A stretch of 64,000 nucleotides of DNA, taken from contig NMRA01000564.1 in assembly GCA_002633005.1 (NCBI GenBank), positions 1 to 64,000 of the forward strand, written 5' to 3'. The translations under genes were made by a program, and so were the position numbers. The notes under the pieces were generated by a model. The model was not told the origin of the DNA. It worked only from the letters and a program-made list of their open reading frames with translations, and searched no databases. Each line of letters starts with the position of its first letter. Within the stretch, counting starts at the first letter, position 1. This document shows positions 8,306 through 63,760 of the stretch, one piece after another. Source of the stretch: Phoronis australis. Taxonomy: Eukaryota; Animalia; Phoronida.

Positions 8306-9037
8306 CCGCCAAATCGTTATCTCACTAGTGAGATAACTGTATGGGTTATTACACGGTTGTATCTGTCATTTGACGCCTATATTGTGGTATAATATATATT
8401 TACACAAATCCACAAATGGTTGCAAAATTATAACAATCGCCGTAGGCGCGTTGCACGTTCAGATGTCATTCACCGAACACGTTAATTAAACACAAAATGA
8501 ACACAGAGTAAAATGGTGGTAAAGACACCACTCATTTGTTTAGTAGTATACCTTCACCATATCCGCATAGCAGTGCTCCAACTGGTAAAAACTTTTGATT
8601 GGGAAACTGGATATACTGCGCAAGAGCGACTGTCAACAGATTTAAGTAAGTGACGAATCGGTTCTCTGCGACCTAATACGTGACGGGAGGAGGTGTACTT
8701 GTCAAAATAACCATTCCATTAACCTTGGGTCCAAACTGGATTCAGGGTTGATATTCATACTGCTTTAAAATAACCGCGCGAGTCATTATAAAACGCCATT
8801 CATGAAAAGCGTCGTCAACTGTGTGACGCCATTTATATTGGTTAACGCAAGCTAGGTGATCTCCCGACAGACCATCACACTTTGGTGAGCAATTTTATGT
8901 TTCCAGAAAAAGTTCAGAGAATGAACAATCAGCACTCTGCTAGTATTAATACCCCAGACAACCACAGAAAAAATAATCTTCAAAGAGTCCATTACAATAA
9001 GAACACAAGGGTCACAGTTCACTTGGTGCTTACCGAT

Positions 9038-10062: not shown

Positions 10063-13000
10063 TTCCAGATATAACTTGCTATCTTCAAATTGGTGAAAAG
10101 TACAAGGGTTCATACAAAACAACTGTAAATCAGCGAGCATGTATGCTGTGGAAGAATCTAATGCACCTCATGTCTGAGGAAGAACGAAATGTCTATAATT
10201 CGTGGACGAACGAAGAGAAGAGAAGCGTCACCTTTTGTCGAAATCTGGCTGGCACAATGACGTCTCCGTGGTGTTTTGCAGATAGGAACGGCAAAATGGT
10301 GAAGGAACTATGTGGAATTCCGAAGTGCAAAAGTAATAGTCCAACTGTAACAAAACGTAGTTGTTTGATCCATCCATGAAAGCTCATTGTATTCGAATTA
10401 AATCTGGTCTGGTGGACACAAAATTGAAATCCTAGCACGTCGAAGGCATCACGCTTCCTTCAAAGGGAGCATATTATTGAAGATTGGCATGTTTTATTTC
10501 ACCTGAAAAAGAGCTGAGGTCATTTTTAAGTGACATGTTCCTATCAATCACAAAAAAACACCTAGCCTACGTCATTGAATAATATGACTTCTTATTCAGT
10601 CGTGAGAATGTGTAAACCCAGTTTGACCAACGTTTCAAGCGACCTAACATCGAACCCCAGGATCTTGGCTCTAACCTTGATACTCGAAATGAAACGGGAA
10701 CTTTTTGACATATCACATTCTTTTTTGGGTAAATTTAGGAAGTGTCTATAACTTTGTATTCTAGTATTTTGTTGTATGTGTATTAATGTCTTGTAGATGG
10801 TCAAACTCGATGAGCCCATGATTCAAGGCACATATGTACCACCCAGAGTAAAAAGTCAAAATTCGAGTACAGACTCGAAAATTAAGTTATAACGTTAATG
10901 CTCGCGTAATCAAGCACACGCTAGGATTGGACAGTCTTCCGCGTAAACCACATTGTGCTAGAACACAGAATAATAGACATTTATCTTAAATCAAAAGAAG
11001 AGCAAACCGGGAAAAATGTAAAACATAATTTCGAGTTTCAATTCGATTACAAAAATAATATGTTGGGCACAGGCATGTGACAAAAAAGAAGTAATAAGCT
11101 TCATTATGGTTATTAAAGATGAAGTCACTATGTCAGGACTCTGCACCCTTTTAAAGCATCCATTCTGACCACACAAGTGACTACTACTGAAATTTGCTTG
11201 GCGAAACAATACTGCAATGACTGATCTGCTTGCCCGTCAGAATGTAAAACATAGTTTAAAGCACAAATGCTGCAGAAGACGAAACTAGCATAGTTTGATA
11301 ATTGACCGCATGGTGTCGCGTCAAATTCCACCCACGGTCTACAGCAACTCTTTGGACTCCACGGATAATGCCATTTGATTTTGGAAACAGCAATGCAGTT
11401 TCATTTGATCCCGTCAATTGCTTTTGGTGTCAATAAACCTATTGCCATTGTTCATTTCAGAAAATTATCTTCGTGGAATCGCAGCTAACTTTTCTGTCGA
11501 CGGTGTTTTCATTGAACAAACAGAGAAAATAACAGATGGCGACAGGAATGAGTGTTTTAGAACGCTGCAGGAAGGCCAGAAGGAACTGCAATTTTCATAC
11601 CAACATAATCCAGCAAACGTGACACACCTAAGACTTACTGCAGCTCTGCACGACACCGACTGTAAGCTTCCATTGAACAACAATTATTCTCAGTACATTT
11701 TAAGGTCTTTCCAAATGCGGGTGTAAAATCAAGACAGTCGTGACTGCTGTAACAAATTTATTTGCAATGATGATGATAAATGAGCATACGGAGTGCATTC
11801 CGTAAACCAAGTTTCTAGCGAGAGAGGCGAGATCACGTTACTCCACGCATAGTTACGTGAGTGAAAGATGGACGTTTGGCGAACATGTAGGTGACTTCAT
11901 GAGTGTGAACTAGCAAAAATGCAGCTATGGATATGATTAGTCTTTGACGCTAGAATGTTGATTTATGTACTGGAAATCCTGAATTATGGGATGGGATAGA
12001 ATTTGCCGTTTTTATCTAAAAGCGAAGATTTTTGTCGTCATGCATGTTACCCGGCCGGCGGTTTGTGCGGAATGATCACTCTGACTCAGTGTGTGGTTAA
12101 AATATAATTTTAATGAAACTAATAAACCATGTTAAACTTGTTTAAATGAGAGTTCCTTATAAAGTTCCCGAAGCACCACGCTGAACTAAATGTCAATGTC
12201 TCGATTGAAGTGTAACTGAATTTAGAATTAGGCCCATGCTATACGAAATGGTTCCATTTTCCACATATGATTTGTCCCCTGAAACTGAAGTTGTTCACAA
12301 TCCGTCGAACTCGTACGGTGTCGCACAACAGTTTTAAAGCTTTTTATTTCATAACAGCTGAGTTGACTGTCCTTCTCACACCACAAATCCACTGGACAAT
12401 ATTCCTGACATTCAAAATTGTGTTCTCTTCTTGTGTCTCAGCGTCTCGTGCCACCGCCCGGAAGTTTACTAGCGCCACCTGGTTAATATCGTCTGCAACA
12501 GCGCCACCACTCTCCTACGCAGCGAGTTATTGTTCACTAAATCCAATTCCTGGCAGTGCACAGGTGACGAATGTTAAGGTCTCACTTCTTTTCAGGGAAC
12601 CATTTAAAGGGTTTCCAAGTGTTCTTGTTTAGCGGACAAAACACTTCATTGTGTACATCGCGAACCGGCGCAGTTCTCCAAGGTCAAACAATCCTTCTGG
12701 AGTGTGAGAGCATGCGTGAAAGTGCTTCACTTGTTATTAAATTTGTAGCCGGTATCCAAAACATTGAAATTTGCGAGGTAGAGGCTTACAGCGAACAACC
12801 GCAACCAGGTATGTACCTATTGGTTTTTGGGCAAGCAGAAACATTCGAGCAGGCATGTGGGCATGGTCAGTGTCCTATTTTAAACATGTTAGGTGATGCA
12901 CTTAGCCACTCTGAGGTCTGATCTTTGTATTTGAAATAGAGGTTGCATGTTTGACATTTTTCGCCATCGTTTGGCTCAAATCCAAGACGCGTGTCTTTTA

Positions 13001-16000
13001 TGCAATACTGGAGTACATTGCGGGTTACGAAGATGAGTTTCCAGTTCATTTCGAACCTGATGACATCAAGGCCGGGATCGAATATTTTTATTAGAAATCG
13101 AAACAGAATTAGATTAGAATCATTTGTCCATTCTTCTAGACTGGCTTGTGTGGAAAAATAGCGTGTACTCGATGACCCCAGCATTAAGGCTACAAGTCTG
13201 AGTCGGACTCGTGTTTTATTCGAGTTTGTAGCACGAAAAGAGGAGTCGTCAGCTACAAACTCGTCATGAAACCATTATACAAGAACCAATGTGTACTCGA
13301 GCACACACCAATAGCTGCTTATCTTGAGTAGGCACAAAATAGTACAGTAAAATATAGCTATGTGCTTTAAAACGGAATGTTTCCAATGTTTATCCAATAT
13401 TCACGCCTTTTATTTCACCCAGAATGTAACTGACTCCACATGTAGTGTGAAATATAATGCCTTAGTCGAGTTTTAAAAAATCAAGGTGCTTCTGTAATAG
13501 GAGCACCGCATTCACCTCATTGCGGAATTTAAGGGTAAGCTTTTTTCGGGGGCATTTAATTGGATAAAGGGTATCGTTTCGCATATATGCGTATGCGCTA
13601 TTATGTTGAACAATACGATAATAGTCATGGTTTTTCAAACACACGTCAAGTTATTGGGTGCACGATATATCACAACAGGCACTTTAAGGTCATACAGTCT
13701 CTTTTCGCATTCCAGTGTTCGATTTTGAATGCTTGCACCCGCTTGACCCAAATGGGGTTGGCTATTCAGGCTCAGAATCTAAGCTTCCGGCTACACGAGG
13801 CTTGCAAGAAGCTACATGTATCAATTGGTATGCGGCTGACCAAGACGATGAAGTAGGGTCTGTCCACTCATACGCGAAAAGAGTAGGAGGAAGACACAAC
13901 TACTGTCGAAATCCTAACTTTGAACGTCTACCGTGGTGTTACTATGGCGACGAGGGAGGTTTCCGGTCGTGCTCCATTCCCGTTTGTTCGTGTAAGTGAG
14001 ACACGTTTTTCATTCGGCCTCAATAATGAGGATATTGCAGACTTTTCAAATTTTGGAGTCTCTCAAGTGGAGTTACACTCATGCTATCAATTTCCAAAAC
14101 ACCGAACGGATTCTCTGACATACGTGTCCGAAATTTACATACTCCACAAAAGACCTTGGTTCAGCCAAAGGCATTGACACTTCGCGAATACTAAGAGGTT
14201 GTGGTAAGTGGCATGTAATTTTGGTTGGCAAATTTATGGGAGACCGAATGCTTCAAAGGCAGTAAACTAGCGGCACCGTCCGTAAAATGAAGGAAGTAAG
14301 AATTGGTGAAATGTGTAGGCCTATTGTTGAAACGAGATGTGGCAGAGAGAGCAAACGGAGACGCAAAATTGAACGGACGTTTTACCCGCCACAAAAATGT
14401 CAAGACATTGATGATTTAAATTACACAGATGTAGGCACGCCTGCTGAAGTCCTATTGAGACGCATTTCTTATTGCAATCAGCCCGATCAACGCTATTCTG
14501 GAGCAGAAGAAAATACTGGCAATGTTGTTATTCTGTTGTGCAGTAGAAATTTCTAAGACACTATGGTTATTGTTTGAAACGGACGATTAACGCAAATATG
14601 CGCATGCAGTCTCGTCCGCACCAGTGTCACGTAGAGAGGGAGAGAGAGGGATAGATAGAGAGAGAAGTTGCAGCATTATGACGCTGCGAAGGAACGTTGT
14701 TTCAGTTAAGTTGTTGAAAATGATTAGCGCTGTGGCACTTGGCAACTACAAAGCTGCGGCGTGTGCTTTAAACTGAGAAATTGCTACATCACTTTTTAAA
14801 ACTTCTCAGATGGACCTACCGATGTCATTGTGACTGCTGAGGTTGGAAAACTGCAAAGACGAGGAAGTTCATTGTTCTACCTTATCCAGGAAGGTCTGAC
14901 TGCTGCTTTGGCGTGTACCACTCCGTGCACTTACCCGAAAAAGCCAGTTGTACGCTGGCGTTCAAATCCATCATCGGGTCTAAGTGCAGAGAAACCAACA
15001 TATACACAGTGCCAGGATTTTGGCGGCGCCACTTCTCGTCGTTTGCAATTCACCGCAACTGCTCGACATAATGGTGACATACTTTCGTGCGAAGGCAAAA
15101 ACTTGAACCATGCTTACGTCTCGGCTCAAAGCCAAGTAAAAGTCATTGTCGTGTGTAAGTACATAAATTTGCGCAGTTAAGAGCACTCCGACAAGGGCCA
15201 ACTTACGTATTATATGAGCCTTAATAAATGATTTTTGTCAATTTCCATCTTTTTGAAGTGCATCTAAGTTGATATTGCCTATGAGAACTATATTTGCCTG
15301 TTGTTACCATTTTAATTGTGAAGAATAACAAACAAAAAATCCCAGTCACAAAAAACAAAAAAACAAATATTCCAATCACTAAAGTGTCGACTATCCTAAA
15401 TACGGTACAAGCCGAGTCTGGAGAAACAAATATTAGAGGCGAAAGATTGTGTTGTCACGTAATATAATACTCGCAGTCAGGGAATTATGCGAAGTATGAG
15501 AAATGTGATGCCAGGGATACTTCTTTCGCCAGTAGGACCAGGGCATTTGACGGTAAAAGACCAGCTTTCCCACGGCTACCAAAACGGACAAATCGTAACC
15601 GTGGTCGAAGGCTTTACTTATACATTGATTTGCTCAACCGATTCTGTGTCTCCTGGTGGTACAGTGAAGTGGCAGGACATTGCACCGCCTGACCATACGA
15701 GCTTCGAAGTTCATGATGGGGACCACAACGCGTCGGTGTTTGTCAGCTATTTGACCTTTAAAGCCAACAGGAGCAGACATCGTCAACGTATTCGTTGTCG
15801 TTCGACTAACAGTGAAGATCCAACACTAATGGCAGAGATATCACTATCACTTGATGTTTACTGTAAGATTTCTTCACTGCATTGATAGACCGTAACAATC
15901 GCAGTCATGGCTCAACCTGCTTGAAATCTTACTTGCAATGAAGACAAAACATGAACACATAGTCCCTTCCCACAATCCTATCTTGGATTTACACAGTTAT

Positions 16001-19000
16001 TTGTGAAATTACACCTTATAAGTTACGAATGTTTTAACCTTTTTGTCATATAGCATGTTTTTTTCCAAAAAAGTGCCATGCAATTGCGGTGTAATTAAAA
16101 TGTAAGAACATACAATCAGTAGGCAATACAATGCCCGCTGAGTGGTCCTAAAAACGCTTTAAAATGTGACGAAATTTAAAGGTCCAACGTTACTAAATGA
16201 ATTTCTATTTTTATATTGTTAAGGATAATACCTCATTGTAGTCGCTATCTGGTGGATATCCAGTCGCCCATTCTCATTGTTACGCATTGCTTTTGTATTT
16301 CACTAAATTATTTCGGAGATAACAAATCTGACCGTAGCTGACCACAGATATGTTTTAAGCATATTAGATCTTGGGCAGTGTTGTAGGACTATCGTCTAAT
16401 TTCAGTGGCGATAGAAAAACTCCGTCAAAATAAACACGTGAGCTTACGGTTTTGTATGTACCTGAATGTGTGTAGCTGGACCCACCAAAGTGAAAGTGAC
16501 AAATGGAGGCGGGATAACGTATCAGCACAATCAGTCGATCACAGTGGCAGAAGGGAGTGAGCTTGTTTTCACGTGTACGTCAGATGATATCTATCCCCAT
16601 GGCAATCTAACGTGGACTGGTGGTGGACGGGTTGGAACCGTCATGAGGAACAGCACGCCAGACGGACGGAAGACTTTGTCACTGGAACTAACTGTTCAAG
16701 CATCTAGAGACTTGGGCACACTCACTTGCAAAGCTTTTGACGGCAGAAATGTGTCATTTGTTTCTGAGTCAAGCATCAAGCTAAAAATACTTTGTAAGTG
16801 TGATAAAGTTGTCACGAATCGTTCGTCACTCAGCGTAAATTGAGGTCTTTTGTGGAGAACAGCTTTCTCCCCCACGGTACATCAGTATCAGTTAGACCCG
16901 GTCAAACTAAACTGATAACGCAGCAACGGCGTTGGCACTGAAGCAACTGAATACAGCCAAAGATGTACGCGTGCTGCACAGGTCACGATTTTTCGTCCGG
17001 CAGGCAGGCAAATAGTTGTTGACCAGTCGTCGATCGGTCGGAGAAACAGCAGGCCGGTAGCAGTCCGCAGAGACAATCGCAGCGCCGACAACAATGCAGG
17101 CTGTAGAACATTTCCTTTAAAAAAACAACTGTTGACGTGCCACATCTGTTGCCTGTGTTTTTTGTATTTCATCGGAACTGACTGTATTAACGAAACGTTG
17201 CATTATTGCATGCGCAACTATAACCCTCAGCATGTGGTGATGATTTGTCACTTGTCTTCCATCGAAATTATGGGGAGCCCAGCTAATGACTCTTACTGGA
17301 CCGTTGGTTATCTAGTCCGAGTCGGCTGGCAGACAGGTCAAACAAAGACGCGTGACCCATGTTGAACCCATAAGAAATGGCGTAATAACACATACCGTAT
17401 GTATATATATATATATATTTCAAAATATATACCACCTTAAAAAAGATGAAGTGTAGTTGCTGTTTACTTCTAGTTCATCTGTACCTTTCTATTTCTTATC
17501 GAGTTTGCAGACCATTAGCAATGTTTGGATTGGTCCAAGCATGACAATGATGTGCGAGCTGGTAATGGCAACGTTATCCTAAATTCCTTTTACTCCAACA
17601 CATATGAAATGCGACCTGTCTTCTTTTCCGCTAGACGGACCTTTGTCGCTTACCATAGCTGACCAAAGTGGTGCACCTCTACCTAATACCTATACAGTTA
17701 TAAGTGGTCAACAAATCACTCTCCATTGCCTTACCGACTCCGTCTCGGACACCGGCGCTGTGTACTGGGAGAATGTTCCTGCTCAGCAAGTTACCAGACG
17801 AAAAGCCCTGGGAATCGGCAATGTGTTCTATAGGGTTGCTATTTTTACTCCAACGAGAGGAATGAACAAAGCTGTGTGCCGCTGTAGAGCACGAAACGTA
17901 GACGCTCCTCTAATAAAAGCCTATAAGTCGATAAGACTGAACGTGGTCTGTAAGTACCATTTCACTATTTGACTTGAGCCCGGGATCTTGAGACGCAGCT
18001 TCTTCTTTGTAATTTTCGGTGATCATTCTTCAAACGACTGCCTAGCGAATCATAGAACTGCCTCATAATGTATGTGGGTAGTTGCATTTAATTGTTGTTT
18101 TTACGTAATGATTGTCAAGTGGATCTAATAATCATTAAGGCGATAGACGCATGTTACCCACAATCAAAACATCTCTGCTGTGATCAGCAGCCACTGACGC
18201 AAATTCTTATTTTATTATATAGATGGACCAACAAAAGTAATTATAACACCAAGCGCTGGAACGTTAACTGAAGACGTGCATGTAGTAGACAGCAAATCCG
18301 AATATCAGGTCAAGTGTGAAACGGATGACGTCAACGAGCACGCCACAGTTCTGATGACGACAAACATAGACTCTGCTCACCATGTCAGAGATCCACTGAG
18401 CGGTCAAACCACACGCACCCTCCGATTCACAACAAGTGCATGGCAAAATGGGAGGTTTATCAAGTGTTATGCTGAGAATAGTCAATACCCCAACTTTTAC
18501 GCAGAGAAGCAATTAAATTTATCGGTTACATGTAGGTACATCTAGTTGTAGTTTTAGTTAACTAAACCCGATCCTCACGAATAACTTACGCTCGAAAAGC
18601 AATCTCGTGAGCCTAATTTGTTTCATTCTTTTAATTTGTGGATCAAGAAAGTTGAACGTTAGACACCTGATTTTATTATGTGTTAAACCAAAACTTAACC
18701 AGTGCGTCATGCTTTCAGTTGGACCTACTGAGGTAATCATTGCTAACGATGGATCTTCTAGTGGCACTTTAGAACCATCGCAAGCACGTTTCACAGCTGA
18801 AGACGGAGTTAGATATCGGATCAGATGTCAGACTGACACCATTAACCCTGAGGGATCAGTGCGCTGGACATTTCGCAGGAACACAGGCTGGGAAACGGGA
18901 TCCCATCATGTCCCTGGCATTGCCGGTGGAAAAATCTACACCAGCTTTTTCCATTTTGAGGGCCATCGATCACTGAATGGAATGGTTATCGCCTGCACTG

Positions 19001-22000
19001 CAACTAACGCGAGACGCTCAAGCCTGACGGTCAGAAGAGAAATTACGGTTAACGTAGCTTGTAGGTGTGGGCATCTTATAACCGCTCTTTATTGGTGAAA
19101 TAAGAAATTACATGTATGTGGACGTTATGCACGACTAAACATATATGATCTTAACATGGAATTAATAGGTGACTTGAAATTCAAGGTGGCGCTAGTGTTG
19201 CAAGGGTCCTATCATTTGAAAGCGTGGATTAAGTTAGGCAGTTTTCAAGAAAAACTAGACGGACTTTGACAAAACACTGTCAAATTCTACCGAACTGCAG
19301 TGACGCACATCGTGTTGAAATCGGCAAAATTTCTCTTCCAGTAGAATATCACTTTCGTGGAGCTTCTGCCTGGGATGTTTTAACGTCTTTGTGTATAGCC
19401 ACTAAAGAGGTTATTGCCACGTTATTAGAGGAAATTGCAAAATTCCGGATACGTTGAAGGTGTTACGTCTAGGCGTAAAACTAAGACGATTAATGTTAAG
19501 AAAAACATTTGACAAATGGCAATTGTGATGCGTGAAGATTAAGATATGCTCACATTTTTTATTGTAATTTGTCGCTTGCGCCAATGCATTTTTCTCTTGT
19601 AGGAAGACATTTTATGTTGTAACTCAAGCAATAGAAGTAGATGCTGCTCTCTAACCGTGTGCCGATTACTTGAATCACTCCGTTTCAGATGGCCCTACCT
19701 CGGTTACGGTGTCTGACGTTGGCTTAATGAAAGGTGAAATGAACCGACGTAAAGACCAGTACACGGTGCATAAAGGCGAGATATGCCAACTAGTTTGTGA
19801 AACTGACAATGTCAATTCCATGGCAAATGTCACCTTTCAGTTAGACGGTGGCTCAGAATTACCTTCAAAAACTCTTCAAATGGAAGCATTCTTCAGCCAG
19901 TCTCTTAATTTCGTAGCTCTCTCTTCTCATAATCAACGCTCCATGACATGCGTTGCAAAGAACGCGGAAAGCAGTCGACTACAAGCGAAGAAAAGTATCA
20001 CCGTCATCGTAATTTGTAAGTGTGACAAGATGTGTTTTTAGTCACAATAACAAAGACGTCTCTTCGAATTCCCGACGTGATTGGTCTTGCAATAAATAGC
20101 GTTTAAGCCTCTAGACAAAGAACTCTGGATCTCGCTCCAAAATCCCCAGTGCATGCAGACGACATACAGTATCACCACTGGTTATGTCTGAAAACGTGCA
20201 AATTAGCTGGTTAGTTCTGCGTACTAATGGATTGTAAGGCTTTGTTTCCTATGTGGCTTATAGGAAACCAATCAAGCTTACAGAATGTGTTTATACAAAG
20301 GCCGAAGATTTCATAAACAGCCCGTAGGTGCCTCCATAGGAACGTCCATTTACCTTAAGACGGTCTGTATCCACAAGTTATAGACCATGGCGACCTTACA
20401 GACTGAATTTAGGAGTAGCAGTCATTGTAAATTGTGGCAACATCAGAGGTCACGTTTATTTGTGTTTATTTAACAGTTGGTCCCGAAGCACTGACAATTA
20501 TAGATTCGAGCTCTAAATTGAATGAGCCACTCAGTACGAGATTTACGGTGATTGACGGAAGGGGCTACACCTTGACTTGTGCGACGGACAGTGTCAATTC
20601 GCAAGCTACAATACAGTGGGAGTTCGCCGGCGGCCAAGGTCATGCGCAGGCAATGACATCCGTCATTTCCGAAAATGGCGGACGTATATTTAGAAGAAAG
20701 TTCACGTTTACAGCGCAACAATCCTTCCATAATTTGCAAGTTGTGTGCAGTGCAAGAAATGACAAGAACAGTGATTTTCAGAGGACGGCTTATGTCGCTT
20801 TGAACGTCATTTGTGAGTACATGTTGATCACAAATTCGATATAGTCTTGATGGTGTTTGTATTTAAGCCTAGGAAAATCTGTTTTGGTGTTGCCATTTGT
20901 CATTCCTGTGGCTGAGGCAAGGCATACGTAATCTCTGTTTTGGTCAAAGTACAACTTCACCAACTTATTTTCGCATTTCAAAACAGGAAGGCACTTGAAA
21001 TCATTGAGCAACAATTGAATAAAGACTTGCGACGGAAACCAAAAATTCAACACAGAAAAAAAATATCAATATGAGACAATTTGAAATGCTGAAGTACACA
21101 TACAATTCAAATCTTAGCTTAGCATGTTGCAAACATCGGTTCAAATGTCCTCTTTCTCAAGATTTACACCACACTCGATTGACCTCGTTCTTGAAATTCA
21201 CACCACACTCGAATGACCCTGTTCTAGAGTTTTACACTACTCTCGAATGTTATTGGTATGGAAGCCCAATACTACCATTTTGAAGTAAAGAAAAGCGTTT
21301 TATTATCTGGCGGCTGCCACTTAATTGAACGACATCCGAAGCATCGTTTCCGTACAAAAACTACACTACGGAAGTCGTTCAATCAATTCGTTTTATCGGG
21401 CGGCCGTCGGTTAAAAAACATTTTCTTCATTTCAAAATGGCACTACTGGGCTCCCCTGCCCGAGACTAGTTTCTTCACAACTTGTTTTCGATGCCAAGTG
21501 TTGCAAATCTTTTCGTTGCCAGCTGGCCCAGCTAGCGCCAGTCCCGGAAATTGTGTTGAAAACGGCCTCGAGGTGACCGAAAACAATATAGCCCAAATCC
21601 GCATAATTATTTGGAAGCCGCCTGTTAATAAAATATTTTCTTCACTTCAAAATGGCACTATTTGGTTTCCGTATATTGATCTGTGCCCGAGACTGGATTC
21701 TTTACAACTTGTTTTTGTTGCCAAGTAATGCCAGCCTTTTCGTTACCAGATGGCCCAGCTAGCGTCACTCTTTTGGCCAGTACCGGAAATTTCGTTGAAA
21801 ACCGCTTCGAGGTGACCGAAAACAATAAAGCCCAAATCTCGTGTACACCAGAAGGCATCAACAATCAAGCCATCATCACTTGGCTGACGGATATTTCTGC
21901 AGGAGATTTTATTTCGACGGGAGACATTTTCAAGTTCAAACCACTCAGGCATCACCTTAAAAGATATATCAAGTGCCTTGCGTTCAACAAGGACCACTCA

Positions 22001-31000: not shown

Positions 31001-34000
31001 AACGCATTCACTCAATAGTTACAGCATTACCATTATTGGAGACGGCAGTTCCATCGCCGTTTTTTCACTGATAGAAAATGTCAATATCAGGAACAGAAGT
31101 AGCTCCGTGACCACGCCTCTAAAATCCAGTTAAGATACTCGCTAACTCGTGATCCTGGACAAGCAGGCATCAGACGCGGGTGCGCTGATTACCCAGACAC
31201 TGATCCGTCGGCGTGTTCGGAACTGGCATGTTTTTATGAAGCATTTTTGGCGCGTGTCTGCTGTTTTGGAACTCGGGACGTGAATTGTATTCGGTGGCTT
31301 GAACATCTACTATTCCCTTCAGTTGATGGTAGCTGGGGACTCTGGAGTGACTGGGACAATTGTACTGCATCGTGCGGGAACGGTGCCATCTACCGGCGGC
31401 GAACATGCGACAGTCCTGCACCACGTCATGGTGGGAGGATATGCGCTGGTGACAGCACACAGTCTGCCAGCTGTTCAGTGCCCACTTCATGCCTTCGTAA
31501 GACCTTATGTTTTGGTGGTGAAATGACGCTAAATATGATATTGCTTTAATAAAAACGCGTTTCAAATAGCTGATTTCTAACAATTGAAATTATTCTACAG
31601 TACGGGTGATCTCTGGATGAAATTACTATGTAAGCTAGTTTACCACAAAGTGATTTTAAATAGGCACGGAACGCAAAAGCTCGCCAAAAATGTGTTTTAA
31701 ATTATAACTGACGAAAGTACCATTTCGCAAAGTCTGGTACAGAGTAATTCCCTTTCCCCTGTGAGGGAATTTCCAGAATAAAATTACAAAATTCACGATT
31801 TTTGAAAATGCTCGAAGGATAAACTCTTTACTCACCACAGAGTTTCTTATCTCCCTCTGCGTTCATAGTAATTCGAAAAACACGTGACTGATAAGACGGA
31901 TATTAACAGCAGATTATCGTGCGTGATTGCACTCCGACTCTGAGGTTGACAGCACAGTATTGGGCAAGCCAATGAAGCAAACAAATTTCCAAAAAGAATT
32001 CCAAGTGTATATTAGAATATACTTGAATTCTGCAATACTTGTATAAATAATTTTAAGCAGTAAACACATCAGTTGCTTCTTAATCGGACTGGCTGCTGCT
32101 TGAATTGTTTTGTTAACATCAAAGGTCAAAAATTACACTTCCCATATAAGGGAAATGTGTTTTTGTATGTCCTGCCATTCTCAGCAAGGAGACATACTTT
32201 GCCGTTGGGAGAAAAATTGACGAAGTGGAAAGCAGTTGGCAGATCTATTTTAAATTTGAAACTAAACGAAAAATGCTTTGATATTAACAAAGATTCAAAA
32301 TTTTACGAAAAAAGGTAAAAAAATGCCTGCTGAGCAGGTTAAATTCTGTTTCAGTGGCTGAGAACCACTTTGAATATAGCAATTTAGTCTGCTTATCGCG
32401 TTCCAGGCCTCTTTAAGAGTGTCTATACTTATCAATCAGGCAAAGATTCTTTAAAATTACTACTTCAGGTCTGACTGACGGAAGCACTGCTCAAAACTGT
32501 CTTCGTATTAATTTTTTTAACAAATTAACTTAATATTCTAAAAGCAACAAAACACTGTTAATTAAGGATTACAGCCATGTTTGGTGACATGGTCTTAGGG
32601 TTTCTTCAACAATATATCAAACATGTACGTCAAAGAAGGTCTAACTGCAGCCATATTTTAAAGAGCCCTGGCACGCAATAAACATACTAAAATGCTATAT
32701 TGAAAGTGGTTCTCTGCTACTGAAACAAAATTCAACCTGCTCACCTGCTATTTTTAACGTGTAGGTTTGTTCGGAAAGATTTTTAATTTTTGTGGACTTC
32801 AAAGAATTTTCTTTTATTTTCAAGTTTCAAAAAGCGATATGTCAACTGCTCGCCACTTCTTCGTTTTTTCTCCCACAAGGCAAAGCACTTCTCCTTATTT
32901 AGTATAGCAAGACATAGATGAAGCAAATTTCCCTTATATGGGAAGTGTGGCTTTTGATTTCAAGCGACTTCAAGGAATCGACTGAACGCATGTGCGCATT
33001 TATCACAAGTCGTTGGGAGATTACAAACTCTCGTGGTAACCACAGTATTTCATTCGCGCGTATTTCAAAATTGTGAATTTTGTCATTTTTTGGACATTTC
33101 CTCCCAGGAGAAGGTGAATTACTCTCTACTAGACGTTGCAAGATCGTACTTTCTTAAGGAATTGTTTTGTGTTTTTAAAATGTCTATCGCGTGTTCAAAT
33201 TAAATACGTCTGTCTGTCTCATTGGGTATACGAAGGTTATGCTTTCTCCCGTGAACAATCATGTATTTCAGAGACATCTCCGTTGCTCGTGGGAAGCTTG
33301 ACAGCCGTCGTAATAATAGTTGGGGTTGCGATTTTGTTGATTATCGCGTGGAGACGCAAACGTAAGATACACCACGAGAAAGCCTTGTGCGAGGCTCCAG
33401 AGATATATGCTGGCGACAGGGGCGCAGAACATACGGAACTAGAGAAAAAAGTATTGAGTTTATCCCCATCGTTGCTGCAATCCTCCAATGAAGACCTTTG
33501 TATGACTGATAGCTTGGTAAACGTTGTAGATAGGCAGTCAGACTTCGTCAAACTAGGAGGAACAGTTTTAAATGAGACAGATCTGAAGAAACTGGGGGTT
33601 GATTTGTCGGTAAATGCACTTTCAGACTTGTCTCGGAAATTGGCAGTTGAAGTTAGTTCAAGGTCTACTAAAGAGTTGGAAACAGCATCTGAAGATAAAT
33701 GTTTGAAGCCTTGCAATCGAGGAAGTAAATCCAGCTTGCGACGGAAAAGCAATGACGAAGATCGCAAACCTTATGAAGGTATTTTGACGACGGCACGGGA
33801 TATTTTTTCTAAACTGAAAAGTAAAATAACTCCAATCAATGCAGACAAGCCAAAGCAGTTGACAGTGGACAACGGGAAAGGGCCTAAAGTTGATTTAACG
33901 GATGTCAAGCAAATCAACGCTGCCATATTTGGAGTACTAGAACTGTTTAAGTTTATTGGTATGGACATTTCAAATCTAAAAGCTGCAACACTTTTTGAAC

Positions 34001-37000
34001 AAGTTGAGCTGACGGAGCCTGTGGTGACACGGTGGGCACAAACGGTTGGAATTAATCTGGAAGAGATTTCACGCGTTAACTCAGCCACCGAAACAGAAAT
34101 GGAATGGATTCAAGATGCAGGTATAGAAATGCTAAAACGCGGAGGAATTGACATATCTACACAATTTGGAAGAAAATTGGGCAAAATGCCAGCAAATGGC
34201 ACGACTTTTCTCAAAAACATCGGCGTAGACCTGAGCAGGCATGCCCAAGTTAACTTGAAGGAGAACCATGGTCTCAAGATAACGCGAGAAATTGGAATAG
34301 AATTGTTGAAAATGAGAGGCTATGACGTTCGTAGAATCGCTGAATATAAATTGACTGTTGACGATTCGGCCTCAGCACAAAAGAATCTTCAAAATATGGG
34401 CTTGGATTTGAGGAAATATAGCAAACCCAGTATCAAGCCTAATGTTGACCTCCGAAAAGAGAGTATGCAGATAGCTAATGAGTTGCTGGTACAACTTCAC
34501 ATAGACATCTTTTCTAAACGTAAACTAAAAGTAAAAATAAATACATTTGATGAGCGCGAGCCCATTAACCAGGGAGATAAATTAATTATCAATTATCAGT
34601 CAAAAAAGGAAAGGATTTTACAGCAGTTTGGAATAGAACTCATTCAAAAAGCAGGTATTGACCTACAAAAAGCAATTGGAAAAAGCCTTAATGAAAGCCC
34701 AACTGTCGACATCCTGACACCAGAGGGCGTTAAGGCATTGGAAGAGGTAGGCGTACAGTATGCAAAAGTGGCGACTTGTGAACTTATATCTCAGTTCGAA
34801 ATTGACCTTCTCAGGTATGCCGCTATTCAATTGTTACTGCATGCTAACGTGGATTTGGGGTCTGCAACCAAATTTTTGTTAACTGGTGGATTTCCGACCG
34901 CGGTTTTAACGCCTCTTCTCAAGTTTATGGGCATCAGCTTAAAACGCAATGCGAAGGCTTTGAAAAGGGACAAACTCGCGAGCTCTATTACTCAGCAAGC
35001 TGGTATTGAATTACTGAAGAGGACCGGTATAGACATCACACAGTTTATTCAAACTGTATCAGAAAAGCGTCCTGAGGATACTAATAACCCAGAAGCGCGA
35101 CGAGTATTGAAAGGATGTGGCTTAGATCGAATTCAACTCGATATCGAAGTGTCGAAGTCCAAACATGAAGCTATTGGATTTCTTAGGTCAACGAGCTTGC
35201 GGCTCTTACGGAAGACTGGGGTCGATTTGGATCCAAGCTCAAACAGGCTCGTAAAAATGGTAGATATTCATACACCGTTAGGTAACGCACTTGTTAAACA
35301 TTTTGGTGTAAATTTTGATGTACTTGATAAAACAGAGCGCGTTGATAAACGAATGTGGGATAATATTCGATTAGCTGCATTTGAACTCCTCAAAACTACC
35401 GGAGTAGACCTTACCAAATTGGCTGACTTGGATATTAACCTAATACACAAGATCAATATACGGCAACACGAAACACGGCTTCAGGAAGTTGGAATTGACC
35501 TCAACAAAATGGATTTCACACGGACTACACACTTGGAAATAGACGCCATCCGACAGGCTGGGGTTGAGTTAATGAAACACGCAAGAATCGATATATCCAC
35601 GGCTAATCCTAACGATTTGATCGACAATTCTTTCCACGTAATATCTCCAGAAGTGAATGAAACGCTGAAACTTATGGGCATAGACATTGACAAGGCATCA
35701 ACGGTTTGCTCCAAAAGTCAAAATGAGAGAATGTTGATTTTGAAAGCAGGTATAGAAATTCTGCGGTTGACAGGAATTGACTTGCAAATGTATGTTAACG
35801 CCATAAAGTCTGAGTGTAAAAGTAATCAGAAGAGTCTGCCTTGTGAGATAGAGTTACTAAAGACTTATGGCATAGACCTTGAACGCCACGAGAGATTAGC
35901 GATGGTAGAACCATCATTGCTCGACTTAACTATGCAAGCGGCCATAAGGCTCCTTCAATCGACTGATATCGATTTGAGAAAGGGGGAGTCATGGAAATCT
36001 CCAAACGTTGAGCCATCGTCACTTTTGTCCGCTTTCTCCATAAACGCTCTCTGCGACATTGGTATTGATCTTGAAAGGCATGCCGAAATTGAGAAAAAAA
36101 CTCCACAAATATTTCATTTGACAGCGCGTGCCGGTCTAGAACTCATTAGACGAACTGGTGTGGATACTAAAAAAGTGGAGCATTTGTTGGGTGCCGAAGA
36201 AAAGAAGATCAATGAGATACTCACAGAACAGCGCTTAGAAATCCTTAGAAATGTTGGAATTGACATGCAACGGCACAACGAGGCTGACCTATCACTTCAA
36301 GATTTACTTGATATCACATTTCACGCCGGCATTGAATTGCTGAAGCGAGCTCAGATTAACCCCCAATTTATTCACGCAATCGTTGACGAAGCAAGCAAAC
36401 AATCATCGCAAACTGAAATGCCGGTGGAAGATCTTCTGAATCACCTTTTGTCGGTGGGAATAAACTTGCCGAAGCACTTAAGCACTGCTAACCATACGAG
36501 TATGGAATTGACAAAACTGGCAGGGGTTGAGCTGCTCAAGCACTGTGGAATCGACATAACAAAGCTGAAAGGATTCAGCTATAAACAAACTACTTTTTTT
36601 GACAAACCCTCATTATTGAAAAACAAGCAGCTTCCGGAACTAGGCATAAACCTACTAGCACAAACGAGAGAACACATGCGAGATCATTTGAGGAAACAGT
36701 TGACTAGACAAGCCGGGTTGGAATTATTAAAGCGCTCGGGCGTCAACTTAATTGCAGAAAATGACGAACTGGCACAGCCTAACATTTTTGACTTGTCTTG
36801 TCAATTATCTACTAACATTTTAGCCAGCATGGGAATAGACCTTGTCGCACATTCCATAATAGACTTATCTAAAAAGAATAACCTGCTGCTTACTCAAGAC
36901 TTGGGATTTGAGCTCCTAAGACGAACTGGAATTGATTTGCGGTACGTTAACTACAAAGATTTAAGTTCTCTGAGAGGATCGGTGGATATGAAAAAACATA

Positions 37001-40000
37001 GAGCAGACATGCTTGAAGTAGGAGTAGATATATCGATGAATCAGATGGCGTGCCTGCCGAAAGCAATTGTCTCCAACGTGACGAGGCAAATTGCATTAGA
37101 ACTTCTCAAACGTAAACAACTTCTGGACAATGAGTACACCACCACTGTCATTAAGAACGATTTAAAGGCTCTTGGAATCAACATATCAAAGCTTAATAGC
37201 ATGGACTTATCAAAGAAAAGGTTTATCGACCTGGCGCAACTGGCGGCAGTACATCTACTGAAAGAAACGGGGGTGGATTTGACTAGACTTGATATTAACG
37301 TTCTAAAAAGTCGCCGAAGAATGGATATTGAGAGCGAAAGCGCAATATCAAAGCTACTCAAACTTGGCGTTAATCTTCAAAGACACAGGGATTTGGATTT
37401 GGCGACCCACTTTGCGCTAGACGTCACGCGACAGGCTGCGTTAGAAGTTCTTAAGATAGGTGGAGTAGACCTTAAACCTGACGATGGTTTGACACTCAGT
37501 ATGATAACAGGGCTTGATTTGAAAACGGGCTTTGGAAAGCAGGTCATGAATGAGTTAGGTATTAACTTAGATCAGCTTAGAAATTCAGATCTGCCAACTC
37601 GGCTAATCGGTAATCTTTGCTTTGAAGCTGGTATCCAGCTTATGATGAGATCAGGCATAAATATGAACCCGCAGTTATTGTGTGATATTAAGTGCCTAAG
37701 CGGTAGATATTCTGCACAGGATATGTTCAAGCACCACGAAAACAGCCTTAAGCGTGTTGGTCTTGATTTAAGCAAACATCCAGGGCGCCGTTTCTTAGAA
37801 AAATGTGGAACTGATTCGGCGTGTAAGACAGGAATCGCGGTACTAAAACGTGCTAAGATTGACTTAGATCCAGGCATTTCATTGTTGCGCCTTGAGACAC
37901 CAGCGAATGTTACAGATCGATTAAAATTGATGGGTTTCGATCGATCATTTGACCAAACAACAGACACATTCACCTTGAAAGATAAAAGTGCAATCCAAGT
38001 TGTTGTCATGCGCTTGATGAAGATCACTGGTATAGATGTCAAACAACTTAAAACGCTTGATCTCAGTCAAATTAAAGTTGAAATGAGTCACTTGAAAAGA
38101 CAAGAAAATATTCGTATCGGAATAGATTTGTTAAAGTATCGCAAAGCTTTCCCTCTAAATATTGTGGGGAAACAAATAGCCTATATGGCTGGAACTGAGT
38201 TGCTTAAACGGACTGTGGTTAACTATACCACAGAAGATTACGATCGCTCAAACAGGTTGATGGGTGCTGACGTTTCAAGAAGAGAAGTTCATAGTATGTT
38301 ACTCAACATGGGAATCGACTTAACACTACACGCGGGCATTGAGATGAACGAAGAAAATTCACGACTCACAGCGGAAGCCGCGTTTAAAGTGTTGCTTAGT
38401 TTGGGTCTTGATTTGAAGAAATTTACTGAAACGCTTTCGGATGATGCACTCCAAAATAATATACCTAGGAAACTGCAGAAAAAGGTGAGCAAAAGGATAG
38501 GACTTGATTTAAAAACGTGCTTATCTTATAGGCTTTCCAATGCAACAGATGTAGTATTGCTAAGGGACGCTACCGCAAATCTATTGAAGTTTGCAGTCAG
38601 TATCAATGAGACGAGTGCACCTAAAGCGGAAGTAGCACAAGAACAAATCGTAAGAGAAACCAAGAAGACCGAGGACACTGTCGCTGCAGAAAAGAAGCTT
38701 GGTGAGCTGTTGAAGCATCTGGAAGAATCTGGAAATCGGTTGAAACTTTTGGGAATTGACCTATCGATAAAAAATTCATTGTCAGCCCCGAAACAAAACT
38801 GCCTGAGAGTAATTGCTCTCAGTGAATTGTTGCTCCACATGGGAGTTAGCGTCAGAAAAATTAAGGACGCCAAAATAGATGATGTCGAGGCGCATGAGCG
38901 AAAATTGTTGAAAAACATAGGTATAGACATGGACATTTTTGATCAAGGGTTTCCCATTATTAAAGGTGCAAAGCATGTACTCATACAAGCCGGAATAGAC
39001 TTACTTAAACGCTCTGGCATCGATCTCACCACGGAACAGTACCAACAAGTAAACAAGCTGACAGGCATCGATATGTTAACCAAATCGTATTTGGCAATCT
39101 TAAATAAACTGGGAATTGATATGGCTAGACATGCGAGAATCAGTCAGAACGGAGGCACGAGTGTTTTGACCAAGCACGCTGCTATTGAAATTTTACGGAT
39201 ACTTGGTCTTGACCTGAAAAAAATAACCGGGCTGTTCGCAGCTGGCCCTTGCACAGAGAGCCCATCAAAAGAAATGAAACAAGAAATCAAGAAGATTGGA
39301 GTAGATTTGGATATATGTTTGTCTCGTCCACTTTCTACTGGGTTGGATGTCTTGCTGCTAATGGATGTTGTGCTGACCTTGATCGCCAGCATTGACGTGA
39401 GACAAGGCGTAGCTTCACCAATGTCTTTAGATAAAACACAACCACCCGGTTCAAGTATTCAAGCCCAAGCGAAAGCAAGTGCGGCAAGCGAGTCAAGTGA
39501 ATCGAGCACAGAAGAAAGTAGCATGGATTCAAGTGAAACTGGGTTAACTGAAAAAACTCAAATCATTCACGACGAAACAATAGTAGATACGGCAGAGGAG
39601 TCAAGCACGGAAGAGGAGTCAAGCACGGAAGAGGAGTCAAGCACGGAAGAGGAGTCGAGTACGGAAGAGGAGTCGAGCACAGAAGATGGTGGAAGTGATG
39701 AAGGTATTAATATGACTTTTCAAGAAACTAAAAACATAACAAAAATTCAAATAAACGCATCATCGGACGAGGAAGTTGAAGCCAGTGAAGAAGAGACGTC
39801 GACCGAAGAAAGTGAAGATGATGGCAGCCCAACACTGACTGCTCGGGAAACTAAAGAGACAAGAACAAGATCAGATGAGTCAGACGAAATGGGGTCGACA
39901 AAAGAAGATGATAGAAGTGATGAGGCAAGTGAATCTAATGAAGAAGAGTCGACTACAGAAGATGGCGACAACGATGATTCTGAAGACGAAGGCGATCAGA

Positions 40001-41421
40001 AACCATTTAGACCAATACACTTTTTAAAAAAACTGTCGAGTGATCAATCCATACTGGAATATTTGAAAAGAACTGCGTTTGTTGATTTTTCAAAATGCCG
40101 CCCAGTGTGTGAGGAGGATGTCAAACTGATTAAGTCTGCTGCCACGTGGTTACTTCAGAGAAGTGGTGGCAAACAATCGTCTTTGAAAGATCTGATTCCT
40201 TCGAAGCCAGTCGCGATTACCGACAGACACCACATCGAGAGGTTAAAGCAAATGGGAATAGATATTAATGAGATGAGGCTGCTAAAGTTAGAGGAAGCAG
40301 ACGAAATACTTTTTGTGAAGCTGGCTGGGCTTGAGCTGTTGAATCGTGTTGGTATCAATACGAAATGCCATATTGAAGAGCTTGAAAGCGACAAAGATGC
40401 TATTCGTGCTTGCTCGCGTGTTTTGAAGAACACAACGATAAGCAAGTCGGACTTGCCAAAAAAGAAGTCTAAGTCCAGTGGCACACAAATACAAAATATT
40501 AGCGCAGGAGAATTAATGCGCAACTTTGGTGCAGAACTCCTAAAAAGAGCGGGGATTAATCCAACGCTTTTGCTCAACAATATGAAACCCAAAGTAGATT
40601 TGAGATCATCGAAGTGTATTACCAAGCTTAGAATGTTTGGCATAGACCTTGAAAAGCACGCAAGGAGTAACGTACACTCACAAGATGGGCATAATTTGTC
40701 GATTCAGGCAGGGCTAGAGTTACTAAAAAGAGTGGGCGTGAGCATTAAGAAGTTAAAAGGATTTGTTAAGCCGAAGCAAGTGGACGATCCAGTTCTACTT
40801 GCGGCGGGATTAGATTTAAAGACCCACTCAAAAATGGACCTAGGTATACCAGAAAACTTTGCAGTCACAAAAGAAGCCGGAGCTGAGCTTCTACGTCGAG
40901 CTTCTGTGAACGTGAAAAAACAACTTGCTTTCAAGCGTGCCAAACAAAAGATCCGGAACATAGACTTTGAGTCTGGTGTCGTTACTGAACAAATGAAAAA
41001 AATTGGCATCGACCTCGAAAAGTTTTCGAAGGGAAATCAGCAGACAACAGCAGGACGTGAAGTAAATCTCTCGGTAGGTCTTGAGCTAATTAAGAGGTCA
41101 GGCGTGACAAAAGATGTGTTGACTGAAATTCGTGCACTGGATTCATCTGACAAGTGCAATAAATCGGCAACGAAAGTGGGTGCATTACATCAAACAGAGA
41201 TCCCCATATTGCAATCGCGTTTAACTTCTAAGGGCGCCAATCCAAAGCTGCCAAAATATGAAATTACTAATCGCAAAAACAATAGAAACAGTCGTTCTTT
41301 GAACACGTCAAGTTCACAGGCAAATAAATTGTATGAGATTTCGACTGAAACTGCTGTGAAGAAGAAAACAAACACCAAAAAGACGCCCCCTGTTATTGCA
41401 TTCCTACGAGAACTTAATTGA
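10063..41421 (+). CDS. Giant single-pass receptor, 21 coding exons seen: Kringle-FTP(F-type lectin-like)-Kringle-15xIg-TSP1-TM-~2,700 aa repeat cytoplasmic tail (~4,700 aa; signal exon not located)
   Basis: Chain of AG/GT-bounded phase-1 exons that join in frame, each encoding a recognisable module; the terminal exon carries TM LLVGSLTAVVIIVGVAILLIIAW followed by RRKRK. Confidence 0.85.
10069..10332 (+). CDS. Exon: kringle domain 1
   Basis: TCY..G.KYKG..ACM.W..FCRN..PWCF..LCGIPKC (6 Cys); acceptor ccag (in-frame alternative tag gives start 10063); donor gtaata. Confidence 0.85.
11461..11661 (+). CDS. Exon: N-terminal half of FTP/F5-8C-like (F-type lectin fold) domain
   Basis: tttcag|..ENYLRG..ITDGDRNECFRT..VTHLRLT..|gtaag; 201 nt, phase 1-1. 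Confidence 0.7.
12596..12808 (+). CDS. Exon: C-terminal half of FTP-like domain
   Basis: HLKGFQVFL..C..LEC..IEICEVEAY matches the FTP C-terminal L-CEVEVY pattern; tttcag / gtatgt; 213 nt. Confidence 0.75.
13716..13991 (+). CDS. Exon: kringle domain 2
   Basis: ECL..GVGYSG..TCINW..HNYCRNP..PWCY..SCSIPVC; ccag / gtaagt; 276 nt. Confidence 0.92.
14810..15154 (+). CDS. Ig-like exon 1 (C2/CD80-like)
   Basis: YGP..LACTT..VRW..HNGDILSCEGKN; cag/gtaagt; 345 nt. Confidence 0.88.
15533..15862 (+). CDS. Ig-like exon 2
   Basis: GP..LICSTDSVSP..VKW..IRCRSTN; cag/gtaaga; 330 nt. Confidence 0.88.
16476..16793 (+). CDS. Ig-like exon 3
   Basis: GP..FTCTSDDIYP..LTW..LTCKA; tag/gtaagt; 318 nt. Confidence 0.88.
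17635..17949 (+). CDS. Ig-like exon 4
   Basis: GP..LHCLTDSV..VYW..CRCRARN; tag/gtaagt; 315 nt. Confidence 0.88.
18223..18531 (+). CDS. Ig-like exon 5
   Basis: GP..VKCETDDVN..QNGRFIKCYAEN; tag/gtaggt; 309 nt. Confidence 0.87.
18719..19060 (+). CDS. Ig-like exon 6
   Basis: GP..IRCQTDTINP..VRW..LNGMVIACTATN; cag/gtaggt; 342 nt. Confidence 0.88.
19689..20015 (+). CDS. Ig-like exon 7
   Basis: GP..LVCETDNVN..HNQRSMTCVAKN; cag/gtaagt; 327 nt. Confidence 0.88.
20477..20812 (+). CDS. Ig-like exon 8
   Basis: GP..LTCATDSVN..IQW..VVCSARN; cag/gtgagt; 336 nt. Confidence 0.88.
21415..21600 (+). pseudogene. Degenerate partial tandem duplicate of the acceptor and 5' third of Ig exon 9
   Basis: Aligns to ~21630-21840 (AGPASA-SPGNCVENGLEVTENNIAQI vs DGPASVTLLASTGNFVENRFEVTENNKAQI); small deletion, no donor. 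Confidence 0.8.
21750..22040 (+). CDS. Ig-like exon 9
   Basis: GP..ISCTPEGIN..ITW..IKCLAFN; cag/gtaagt; 291 nt. Confidence 0.88.
22222..22624. mobile_element. MITE with catagac..-type termini; partial copy at ~48488-48644
   Basis: catagattata..atagattcgcaactccg versus cggtgttggcggtctat..tatagtctatg; the 3' ~160 bp recurs in an ABCB intron. Confidence 0.65.
22777..23294 (+). mobile_element. Kolobok-like MITE (TTAA TSD)
   Basis: ttaa|agaggcgtggaacgc ... gcgttccaggcctct|ttaa. Confidence 0.8.
23336..23665 (+). CDS. Ig-like exon 10
   Basis: GP..IKCATDAVHP..VEW..HNGKTLTCEAAN; tag/gttagt; 330 nt. Confidence 0.88.
24109..24441 (+). CDS. Ig-like exon 11 (second canonical Cys replaced by Tyr)
   Basis: GP..VECRTDGVNP..VEW..INYSSWN; tag/gtgagt; 333 nt. 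Confidence 0.85.
25574..25894 (+). CDS. Ig-like exon 12
   Basis: GP..LTCSTDDVYP..ISW..QNGLELSCKGVN; cag/gtaagt; 321 nt. Confidence 0.88.
27352..27687 (+). CDS. Ig-like exon 13 (extra Cys)
   Basis: GP..IDCSTTPSCP..VSW..FECSANN; cag/gtaagt; 336 nt. Confidence 0.86.
27775..27885 (+). repeat. Tandem duplication, ~56 bp x2
   Basis: aacaatcat..tcatgaat.tacaagagcta.att..aacc occurs twice. Confidence 0.75.
28192..28527 (+). CDS. Ig-like exon 14 (second canonical Cys replaced by Phe)
   Basis: GP..LKCLTDAVKP..HNFKQVIFHAVN; cag/gtgagt; 336 nt. Confidence 0.85.
29110..29255 (-). mobile_element. Penelope-like element, GIY-YIG C-terminal fragment
   Basis: EDNWFKRGVKEALH..E.PS.NKRGGLRFNL..VWD resembles the WFERGVKEAI..PSLNRGGGLR tail. 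Confidence 0.75.
29931..30236 (+). CDS. Ig-like exon 15
   Basis: GP..FVCEVDEVYP..FSW..IGCEAKN; cag/gtgagc; 306 nt. Confidence 0.87.
31323..31496 (+). CDS. Exon: thrombospondin type-1 repeat
   Basis: VDGSWGLWSDWDNCTASCGNG..RRRTCDSPAPRHGGRIC.G..C; cag/gtaag; 174 nt. Confidence 0.93.
31660..32412 (+). mobile_element. Kolobok-like MITE, same family as 22777-23294 (longer variant)
   Basis: ttaa|ataggcacggaacgc ... gcgttccaggcctct|ttaa; 3' 300 bp similar to 23000-23294. Confidence 0.72.
32662..33170 (-). mobile_element. Kolobok-like MITE, inverted copy of the same family
   Basis: ttaa|agagccctggcacgc..; reverse complement matches 22820-23294 (shared spurious RKCPKNDKI ORF). Confidence 0.75.
33272..41421 (+). 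CDS. Terminal exon (8,150 nt): TM helix plus cytoplasmic array of ~35 novel ~60-65 aa repeats and an acidic tract
   Basis: tttcag acceptor in phase 1; uninterrupted frame to TGA at 41419-41421; recurrent GIDL / AGxELLKRxGIDL motif. Confidence 0.9.
39595..39684 (+). repeat. Coding minisatellite, 5 x 18 bp (EESSTE)
   Basis: gaggagtcaagcacggaa x3 plus two variants. Confidence 0.95.

Positions 41422-41908: not shown

Positions 41909-63760
<21,852 letters not shown>

Follow-up and report, generated by a model that had tools for sequence, protein, structure and literature searches.

Gene organization and transcription

The window, by which we mean the whole stretch of 64,000 nucleotides that was analysed, carries on its plus strand a real, transcribed animal gene that encodes a predicted single-pass membrane protein, here called the receptor. 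A short-tailed paralog is located upstream of it, and a multi-exon ABCB1/P-glycoprotein-like transporter gene lies convergently on the minus strand (41900-63900), with six of the eight scanned exon frames matching ABC_tran or ABC_membrane. The transporter region also includes a 93-nt tandem repeat with open frames (60571-60842, 2.9 copies) that has no Pfam match. The features of the receptor gene, from its likely start to the membrane helix, are the following.

8513..8645, plus strand: likely first coding exon, with an ATG, a hydrophobic signal-peptide-like stretch and a phase-1 GTAAGT donor
10069..10332, plus strand: kringle 1 (Pfam PF00051, E 7e-13; 6 Cys; sense RNA depth about 6 in run X1 and about 4 in run X2)
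11461..11661, plus strand: first half of an F5/8- or F-type-like domain (ITDGD, similar to the cation motif; RNA depth about 5)
12596..12808, plus strand: second half of the F5/8- or F-type-like domain (Atlas look-alikes in the F5_F8_type_C clan, 0.90-0.91)
13716..13991, plus strand: kringle 2 (Pfam E 1.8e-10; PDB kringles)
14810-15154, 15533-15862, 16476-16793, 17635-17949, 18223-18531, 18719-19060, 19689-20015 and 20477-20812, plus strand: the first eight of 15 Ig exons, one domain each
21750-22040, 23336-23665, 24109-24441, 25574-25894, 27352-27687, 28192-28527 and 29931-30236, plus strand: the last seven Ig exons
31323..31496, plus strand: TSP1 domain (Pfam PF00090, E 5e-12, above the curated cut-off)
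33272..33534, plus strand: start of the last exon, with the membrane helix (about 33283-33351), basic stop-transfer residues and a juxtamembrane segment (from hydropathy and paralog homology)

Leaving the likely first exon aside, the gene consists of 21 exons on the plus strand (10069-41421), each preceded by AG and the 20 internal ones followed by GT, with introns of 187-1,775 nt. All 20 internal exons have a length divisible by 3 and phase 1-1, and together the 21 exons encode 4,716 residues up to a single terminal stop, in agreement with the first-pass annotation, which had predicted 21 phase-1 exons and about 4,700 residues in frame; its start at 10063 corresponds to an alternative in-frame AG six bases upstream of 10069. 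A control scan without domain knowledge, limited to open phase-1 AG..GT exons 165-360 nt long within positions 6100-33270, returned 33 candidates, all of which (33/33) fell on called exons and none in introns, and recovered 18 of the 20 internal exons at their exact boundaries. None of the internal exons of the receptor gene ends in a stop or has a start of its own, and the last exon has no stop over 2,715 codons, whereas the other five frames have 53-240.

The exons and the frame of the original gene model were thus retained, but a start codon and signal peptide were missing from it, and we have added 8513-8645 as the likely first exon. It has an A at position -3 and joins in frame to give a predicted protein of 4,761 residues and about 529 kDa, in which the membrane helix is preceded by 2,052 residues and followed by 2,689. 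Strict and lax scans of 6016-10060 identified no other start exon candidate with an ATG, a hydrophobic stretch and a donor; the strict scan yields 4 candidates per 128 kb with both strands counted, which corresponds to a chance of about 1 in 10 of an accidental candidate in these 4 kb. A hydrophobic frame at 8101-8250 was rejected as a start exon, as it had no donor in the scan and sits in repeat-like DNA. By eye, we also noted a tRNA-like stretch at 8230-8310 in repeat-covered DNA, possibly the head of a SINE, which had no match at the gathering score in an Rfam search.

RNA data from three raw-read runs (X1, X2 and X3) and one contig set were aligned over positions 3900-23800. In X1 and X2, all exon bins of kringle 1 through Ig8 had sense-strand reads, and the depth per exonic base in this segment, estimated from bin means, was 4-14 in X1, 3-11 in X2 and 0-1.8 in X3. 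This comparable depth across exons indicates that the head and stalk exons share the same level and sample pattern. The joint between Ig2 and Ig3 (15862>16476) was covered by 12 and 4 reads; among the joints listed (15 of 50, mostly from repeats), there was at least 1 of the 13 that connect the exons of this gene from kringle 1 to Ig10, and the joints of kringle 2 with Ig1 (13991>14810), of TSP1 with the membrane exon (31496>33272) and of the first exon (8645>10069) were not among them. Since most joints lie outside those listed and the RNA covers 3900-23800 only, we infer the continuity of the transcript from end to end. Most of the RNA-alignment variants among those listed (40 of 490) also come from repeats.

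A stretch of intron at 11868-12531 was covered by sense reads in X1 and X2 only, at a depth of 11-14, nearly all of which differ from the genome at many sites. These reads likely come from a related locus that is co-expressed with the receptor gene.

An upstream paralog with a short tail

Two exons from the 3' end of the paralog were identified upstream of the receptor gene; the remainder of its outer part lies beyond the window.

3965..4138, plus strand: TSP1 exon, 59% identical to the TSP1 of the receptor, with a 98.6% copy at 766-939
5468..6015, plus strand: membrane helix and 155-residue tail, with the ITIM-consensus LVYDSL and a C-terminal S-L-L

The joint between them (4138>5468) is covered by 7 and 11 RNA reads, and the splicing of this TSP1 exon to a homologous membrane exon supports the same joint in the long-tailed gene. 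RNA continues past the short tail in the manner of a 3' UTR, with an AATAAA at 6734. The juxtamembrane parts of the long and the short tail are homologous (BLASTP E 1e-4), and a comparison restricted to the first 60 residues of the cytoplasmic parts gave a score of 60 as compared with 24+/-4.5 for shuffled sequences, none of which (0/300) reached it. At the site where the paralog has LVYDSL, the long tail has MTDSL and no tyrosine. The S-L-L terminus of the paralog we take to be a class I PDZ-type end.

The genome sequence has a TAG directly after the paralog helix (5545-5547), whereas the RNA has a C at 5546 in 12/12 and 9/9 reads, which makes it a sense codon; the TAG represents either a null allele or an assembly error. 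Duplicated blocks at 551-975/3750-4174 and 2313-2514/4167-4368, with 98.5% identity, include the paralog TSP1 exon and adjoin a single N at 2515. They are probably two haplotypes joined at the gap and not a true exon duplication.

The extracellular head and stalk

Both kringles score above the PF00051 cut-off (49.1 and 41.4 bits versus 34.3) and contain six cysteines each. An acidic pair after the CRNP motif of kringles has a role in lysine binding; plasminogen kringles 4 and 5 have DAD and DGD in this region, and the pair is missing from both kringles of the receptor, which have LAGT (kringle 1) and NFER (kringle 2).

The domain between the kringles consists of 137 residues across two exons and looks like a member of the F5/8 clan, as judged from a clan-level Atlas lead and short motifs. 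Its second half shares 138-140 features with F5_F8_type_C clusters in the Atlas, which is below the 170 typical of matches within a family, and neither half-exon, each searched separately, had a match in Pfam or in PDB sequences. The order of domains in the first-pass annotation, with the kringles, 15 Ig domains, TSP1, membrane helix and repeat tail, is retained, except that its F-type lectin label for this domain has no Pfam or PDB sequence match. In the available part of a review of F-type lectins, the fucose-binding motif is given as HX24RXDX4(R/K) and the cation motif as h2DGx (PMC5712786). The fucose-binding motif was not found in the 137-residue domain even when a spacing of 22-28 was allowed, and the ITDGD sequence has Thr at the second position of the cation motif, where the definition allows V/A/I. 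The earlier suggestion of a lectin head is thus unsupported, as far as the motif given in the available part of PMC5712786 is concerned. With neither the fucose motif nor an acidic pair of the plasminogen type, the head is better read as a putative protein-binding module than as a fucolectin.

The 15 Ig exons have pairwise identities of 12-33% (mean 22%), and eight of them match a Pfam Ig family at E<=0.01, three of these above the C2-set_2 cut-off. In an alignment, the Gly-Pro start and the first cysteine are invariant, and both core cysteines are present in 13 of the 15. The best solved match to a profile of the 15 domains is SYG-2 (PDB 4ofy, E 3.6e-16), and no 16th Ig exon was detected in the window with the same profile. 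In a database search, 3 of 7,995 candidates matched the profile, all of them generic nephrin- or VCAM-like Ig proteins, including one 'nephrin-like' protein of Mya arenaria, and a search for homologues with Ig4 alone gave 0 matches among 133 candidates. By hydropathy, the receptor protein has one membrane helix.

A decayed partial copy (77%) of the acceptor and exon start of Ig9 was observed at 21403-21599, beside an inverted 70-nt block, and is as judged from the sequence a trace of a recent exon duplication.

The cytoplasmic repeat tail

The 2,689 residues after the membrane helix are encoded by one exon of 8.1 kb and contain about 35 diverged repeat units, arranged as follows.

33988..39402, plus strand: repeat block 1, 28 units of about 63-64 residues (25 clear, 3 weak)
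39424..40070, plus strand: acidic Ser/Thr/Glu-rich linker (pI 4.05; 18-nt tandem repeat at 39589-39686)
40081..41130, plus strand: repeat block 2, 5 clear units and 1 weak unit
41131..41421, plus strand: basic C-terminal segment and stop

The total of 35 refers to matches, 30 of which exceed 12 bits, to a profile derived from these same units, and includes one weak unit near the membrane. Independently of this profile, the autocorrelation of the tail peaks at lags of 32, 8, 16, 24 and 64 residues (z 11.0, 10.1, 8.4, 8.0 and 7.3, respectively, versus shuffles). The 63-64-residue unit is built of eight-residue cells in which positions 2-4 are hydrophobic, acidic and hydrophobic, respectively, and outside the three anchor cells this pattern is found in 135 cells with a score of 1.50 as compared with 0.81+/-0.06, a value reached in none of 2,000 shuffles; tested position by position, three of the five cell positions are strong alone and two are marginal (81 and 31 of 1,000).

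The units have a mean identity of only 22%, and identical residues at the repeat lags share codons in 28-34% of the cases versus a background of 32%, both of which indicate that the expansion is old. Synonymous similarity has thus been lost, yet the frame has stayed open over 2,715 codons, which suggests that an old array has been kept as protein. The 64-residue unit displays position-specific conservation, such as an invariant Gly and hydrophobic positions that look buried, and is predicted to fold as a compact three-helix module: an AlphaFold model of two units, for which the alignment consisted of 15 rows of the protein's own non-overlapping two-unit stretches, gave three helices per unit (pLDDT 83, pTM 0.77), as compared with a pLDDT of 35 for a single-sequence fold of the tail without alignment.

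No relative of this unit was found in the resources that were searched. The repeat families in Pfam, such as ankyrin, HEAT, ARM and TPR, gave no match at E<=0.1 to any of 27 units, for which the best match was B5 (E 0.013); an ankyrin identity was rejected because neither the period nor the Pfam result agrees with it, and GIDA_C and B5 matches on the whole tail were rejected in the absence of a passing stretch. In the tail, Pfam revealed no genuine domain of a catalytic or signaling family, and an ITAM was likewise not found. The unit profile identified no true relatives among 1.84 billion representative proteins, the 15 matches at E<=0.001 being sums of short motifs in unrelated proteins (bacterial repeats, a Wolbachia SET protein, a diatom ankyrin kinase and octapeptide repeats), and its best match in a PDB sequence search had an E of 0.14. 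Residues 250-750 of the tail matched none of 7,986 candidate homologues and no orthologue of the receptor was recovered in the homologue searches, which span limited lengths and are therefore weak evidence of absence. Scans of metagenome and viral contigs with a stretch of the tail gave no relative, and an Atlas search gave no usable match, which shows neither absence nor novelty. With the two-unit model, the best Foldseek matches had E 2.0 in PDB and E 2.2 among viral structures, and VIA-align over 48,161 chains gave a best Z of 5.0 (rmsd 6.3 over 91 residues). Fold searches without a match do not make the fold of the tail new.

We tentatively suggest that the tail may be a new helical repeat domain with an origin that is still legible, although we hold this for possible rather than probable. 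An eight-residue unit would have been multiplied into folding modules of 32 and 64 residues and these in turn into about 35 copies in one member of a receptor pair, as a 300-kDa scaffold that replaced the ITIM of its sister. Among the proteins inspected, P0004, P0007, P0012, P0013 and P0014 also have tandem helical repeats, of about 70-85 residues and in one case fused to a type III restriction-like helicase; these repeats have no fitting Pfam family and only a short motif in common with the receptor tail.

A proposed model of a long-reach receptor

We give about an even chance to the hypothesis that the gene encodes a long-reach, non-enzymatic adhesion or recognition receptor, with a kringle/F5-8-like/kringle head, a stalk of 15 Ig domains and an inner helical scaffold or spacer of about 35 modules. 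An Ig domain is about 4 nm long, and a type I membrane protein of this design could carry its three-domain head on the nephrin-like stalk at a distance of about 60 nm from the cell. The head would bind a partner on another cell or in the matrix through protein contacts rather than through fucose or lysine. Inside the cell there would be no enzyme, and the repeat array would take the place of a signaling tail as a scaffold or spacer, while the sister gene may signal through its short tail. As for its history, the long-tailed gene could be a tandem duplicate that lost the ITIM tyrosine and gained the array by expansion of the old eight-residue unit. The hypothesis is supported by the open frame and splice sites, by the similar RNA depth over head and Ig exons, by the SYG-2/nephrin-like Ig profile and by the lack of a signaling domain in the tail.

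Another explanation, which we consider unlikely but still worth attention, is that this is a polymorphic receptor for immune, self/non-self or gamete recognition from a tandem family, paired with its ITIM-bearing neighbor, such that the same outer design is connected to different tails. The homologous TSP1, membrane and juxtamembrane parts of the tandem paralog speak for such a pair, as does the ITIM consensus in the short tail opposite a site without tyrosine in the long tail, and the two genes have the same pattern of expression, with reads in X1 and X2 but few in X3. There is also a precedent in the Alr genes of Hydractinia, which form a tandem family of Ig genes whose ITIM/ITAM tails diverge, according to the available part of PMC9546547. 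However, the fucose motif is absent from the head, neither tail has an ITAM, and the Ig domains are of the type found in junction proteins; moreover, the single ITIM-like hexamer is weak evidence given three chance-level matches within the repeats of the long tail.

It seems more improbable that the cell splices these exons differently, either with the head, stalk and tail on separate transcripts or with the upstream TSP1 exon skipping to kringle 1, so that the two genes would form one transcription unit that can end in two ways. Since donor 4138 and acceptor 10069 share phase 1, they could be joined, but the reads across 4138>5468 (7 and 11) equal or exceed the depth of that exon (7.7 and 6.8), which leaves little for such a skip, and behind the short tail there is 3' UTR-like RNA with the AATAAA at 6734. 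Most exon joints lie outside the RNA joints listed and the first exon could be accidental at the rate of about 1 in 10 given above; against this, it makes a good start exon ahead of kringle 1, and the internal exons have neither a stop end nor a start of their own. Least probable of all, in our opinion, is a tail of mostly inert bulk produced by runaway repeat expansion in a protein that works through its outer part alone, as could be imagined from its octapeptide ancestry, from the simple eight-residue repeats with a similar core in the unrelated proteins P0015 and P0017 and from a paralog that manages without a repeat tail, because the 8.1-kb frame is open despite saturated synonymous sites and the units combine position-specific conservation with a confidently predicted fold.

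Comparison with known receptors

The long-reach receptor that we favor shares parts of its architecture with several well-known proteins. ROR and MuSK have a kringle and Ig domains, with a frizzled domain and a cytoplasmic kinase; UNC5 has Ig and TSP1 domains, with a ZU5-UPA-death tail; hemicentin has Ig, TSP1 and VWA domains and is secreted without a membrane helix. The combination of kringle and Ig is thus shared with ROR/MuSK and that of Ig and TSP1 with UNC5 and hemicentin, but unlike hemicentin the receptor has a membrane helix, and none of its 21 exons has a Pfam match to a kinase, frizzled, ZU5, death or VWA domain. The closest likeness in the stalk is to nephrin, SYG-2 and sidestep, in which there is also an array of C2-set_2-type Ig domains with one domain per phase-1 exon and a single membrane helix after it. 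The receptor differs from these in having 15 Ig domains, a kringle/F5-8-like head and a repeat tail of 2,689 residues, and in having TSP1 as the last outer exon where the nephrin-like relatives have a membrane-proximal FN3 domain (PF00041). The first-pass annotation had stated that the protein matches none of ROR/MuSK, nephrin, UNC5 and hemicentin, and the absence of their defining features from the Pfam scan bears this out. Its description of an exon-shuffled, lineage-restricted single-pass receptor with a long Ig stalk is likewise supported.

The F-type lectins and mosaic F-type proteins such as furrowed of Drosophila resemble the receptor in having a domain of about 140 residues within a membrane mosaic, and perhaps in the cation motif, to which ITDGD is similar, and in the F5/8-clan look-alikes. 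The mosaic partners named in the available part of PMC5712786 are C-type lectin, CCP, pentraxin and FA58C, which differ from those of the receptor, and the fucose motif is missing in the latter. The Alr genes of Hydractinia are tandem Ig genes with one domain per exon and tails that diverge more than the outer parts, with ITIM/ITAM in some. As described in the available text of PMC9546547, which does not mention kringles, Alr proteins combine an Fn3-like region with 1-3 V/I-set domains, and these V/I-set and Fn3 features were not found in the receptor.

A literature search, with most subscription papers outside its reach, identified no published protein with this architecture. The novelty of the architecture that had been proposed at first is therefore upheld in part only: no paper identified in this search describes the whole, but constituent pairs are already present in lancelets. 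The combinations F5_F8_type_C;Kringle and Kringle;I-set are among 638 novel domain pairs common to two lancelets, and kringle, F5/8 and Ig are promiscuous domains, the first two among the most promiscuous ones, that spread via 1-1 phase exons in these animals (PMC4284660, Supplementary Table 21 for the pairs, in the part of the source available). The F5/8-kringle and kringle-Ig pairs make the outer architecture less surprising, although the table gives domain pairs rather than whole architectures; no giant repeat tail is mentioned in the same part of PMC4284660.

The outer mosaic is thus one more product of a process common among invertebrates, in which novel mixes of outer domains are frequent, so that the architecture by itself is a modest result; less well explained than any other part is the repeat of the tail. 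It is rarer to find 2,689 cytoplasmic residues in a single exon with an unrecorded repeat, a nested period of 8-32-64 and a confidently predicted fold. Such a tail could serve as a concrete case for the origin of folded domains from short sequence repeats, and the short-tailed sister gene provides a natural control for the effect of the long tail on the receptor. Taken as a whole, the receptor departs from the defining features of the F-type lectins, ROR/MuSK, nephrin, UNC5, hemicentin and Alr, and is likely an adhesion or recognition receptor with an Ig stalk.
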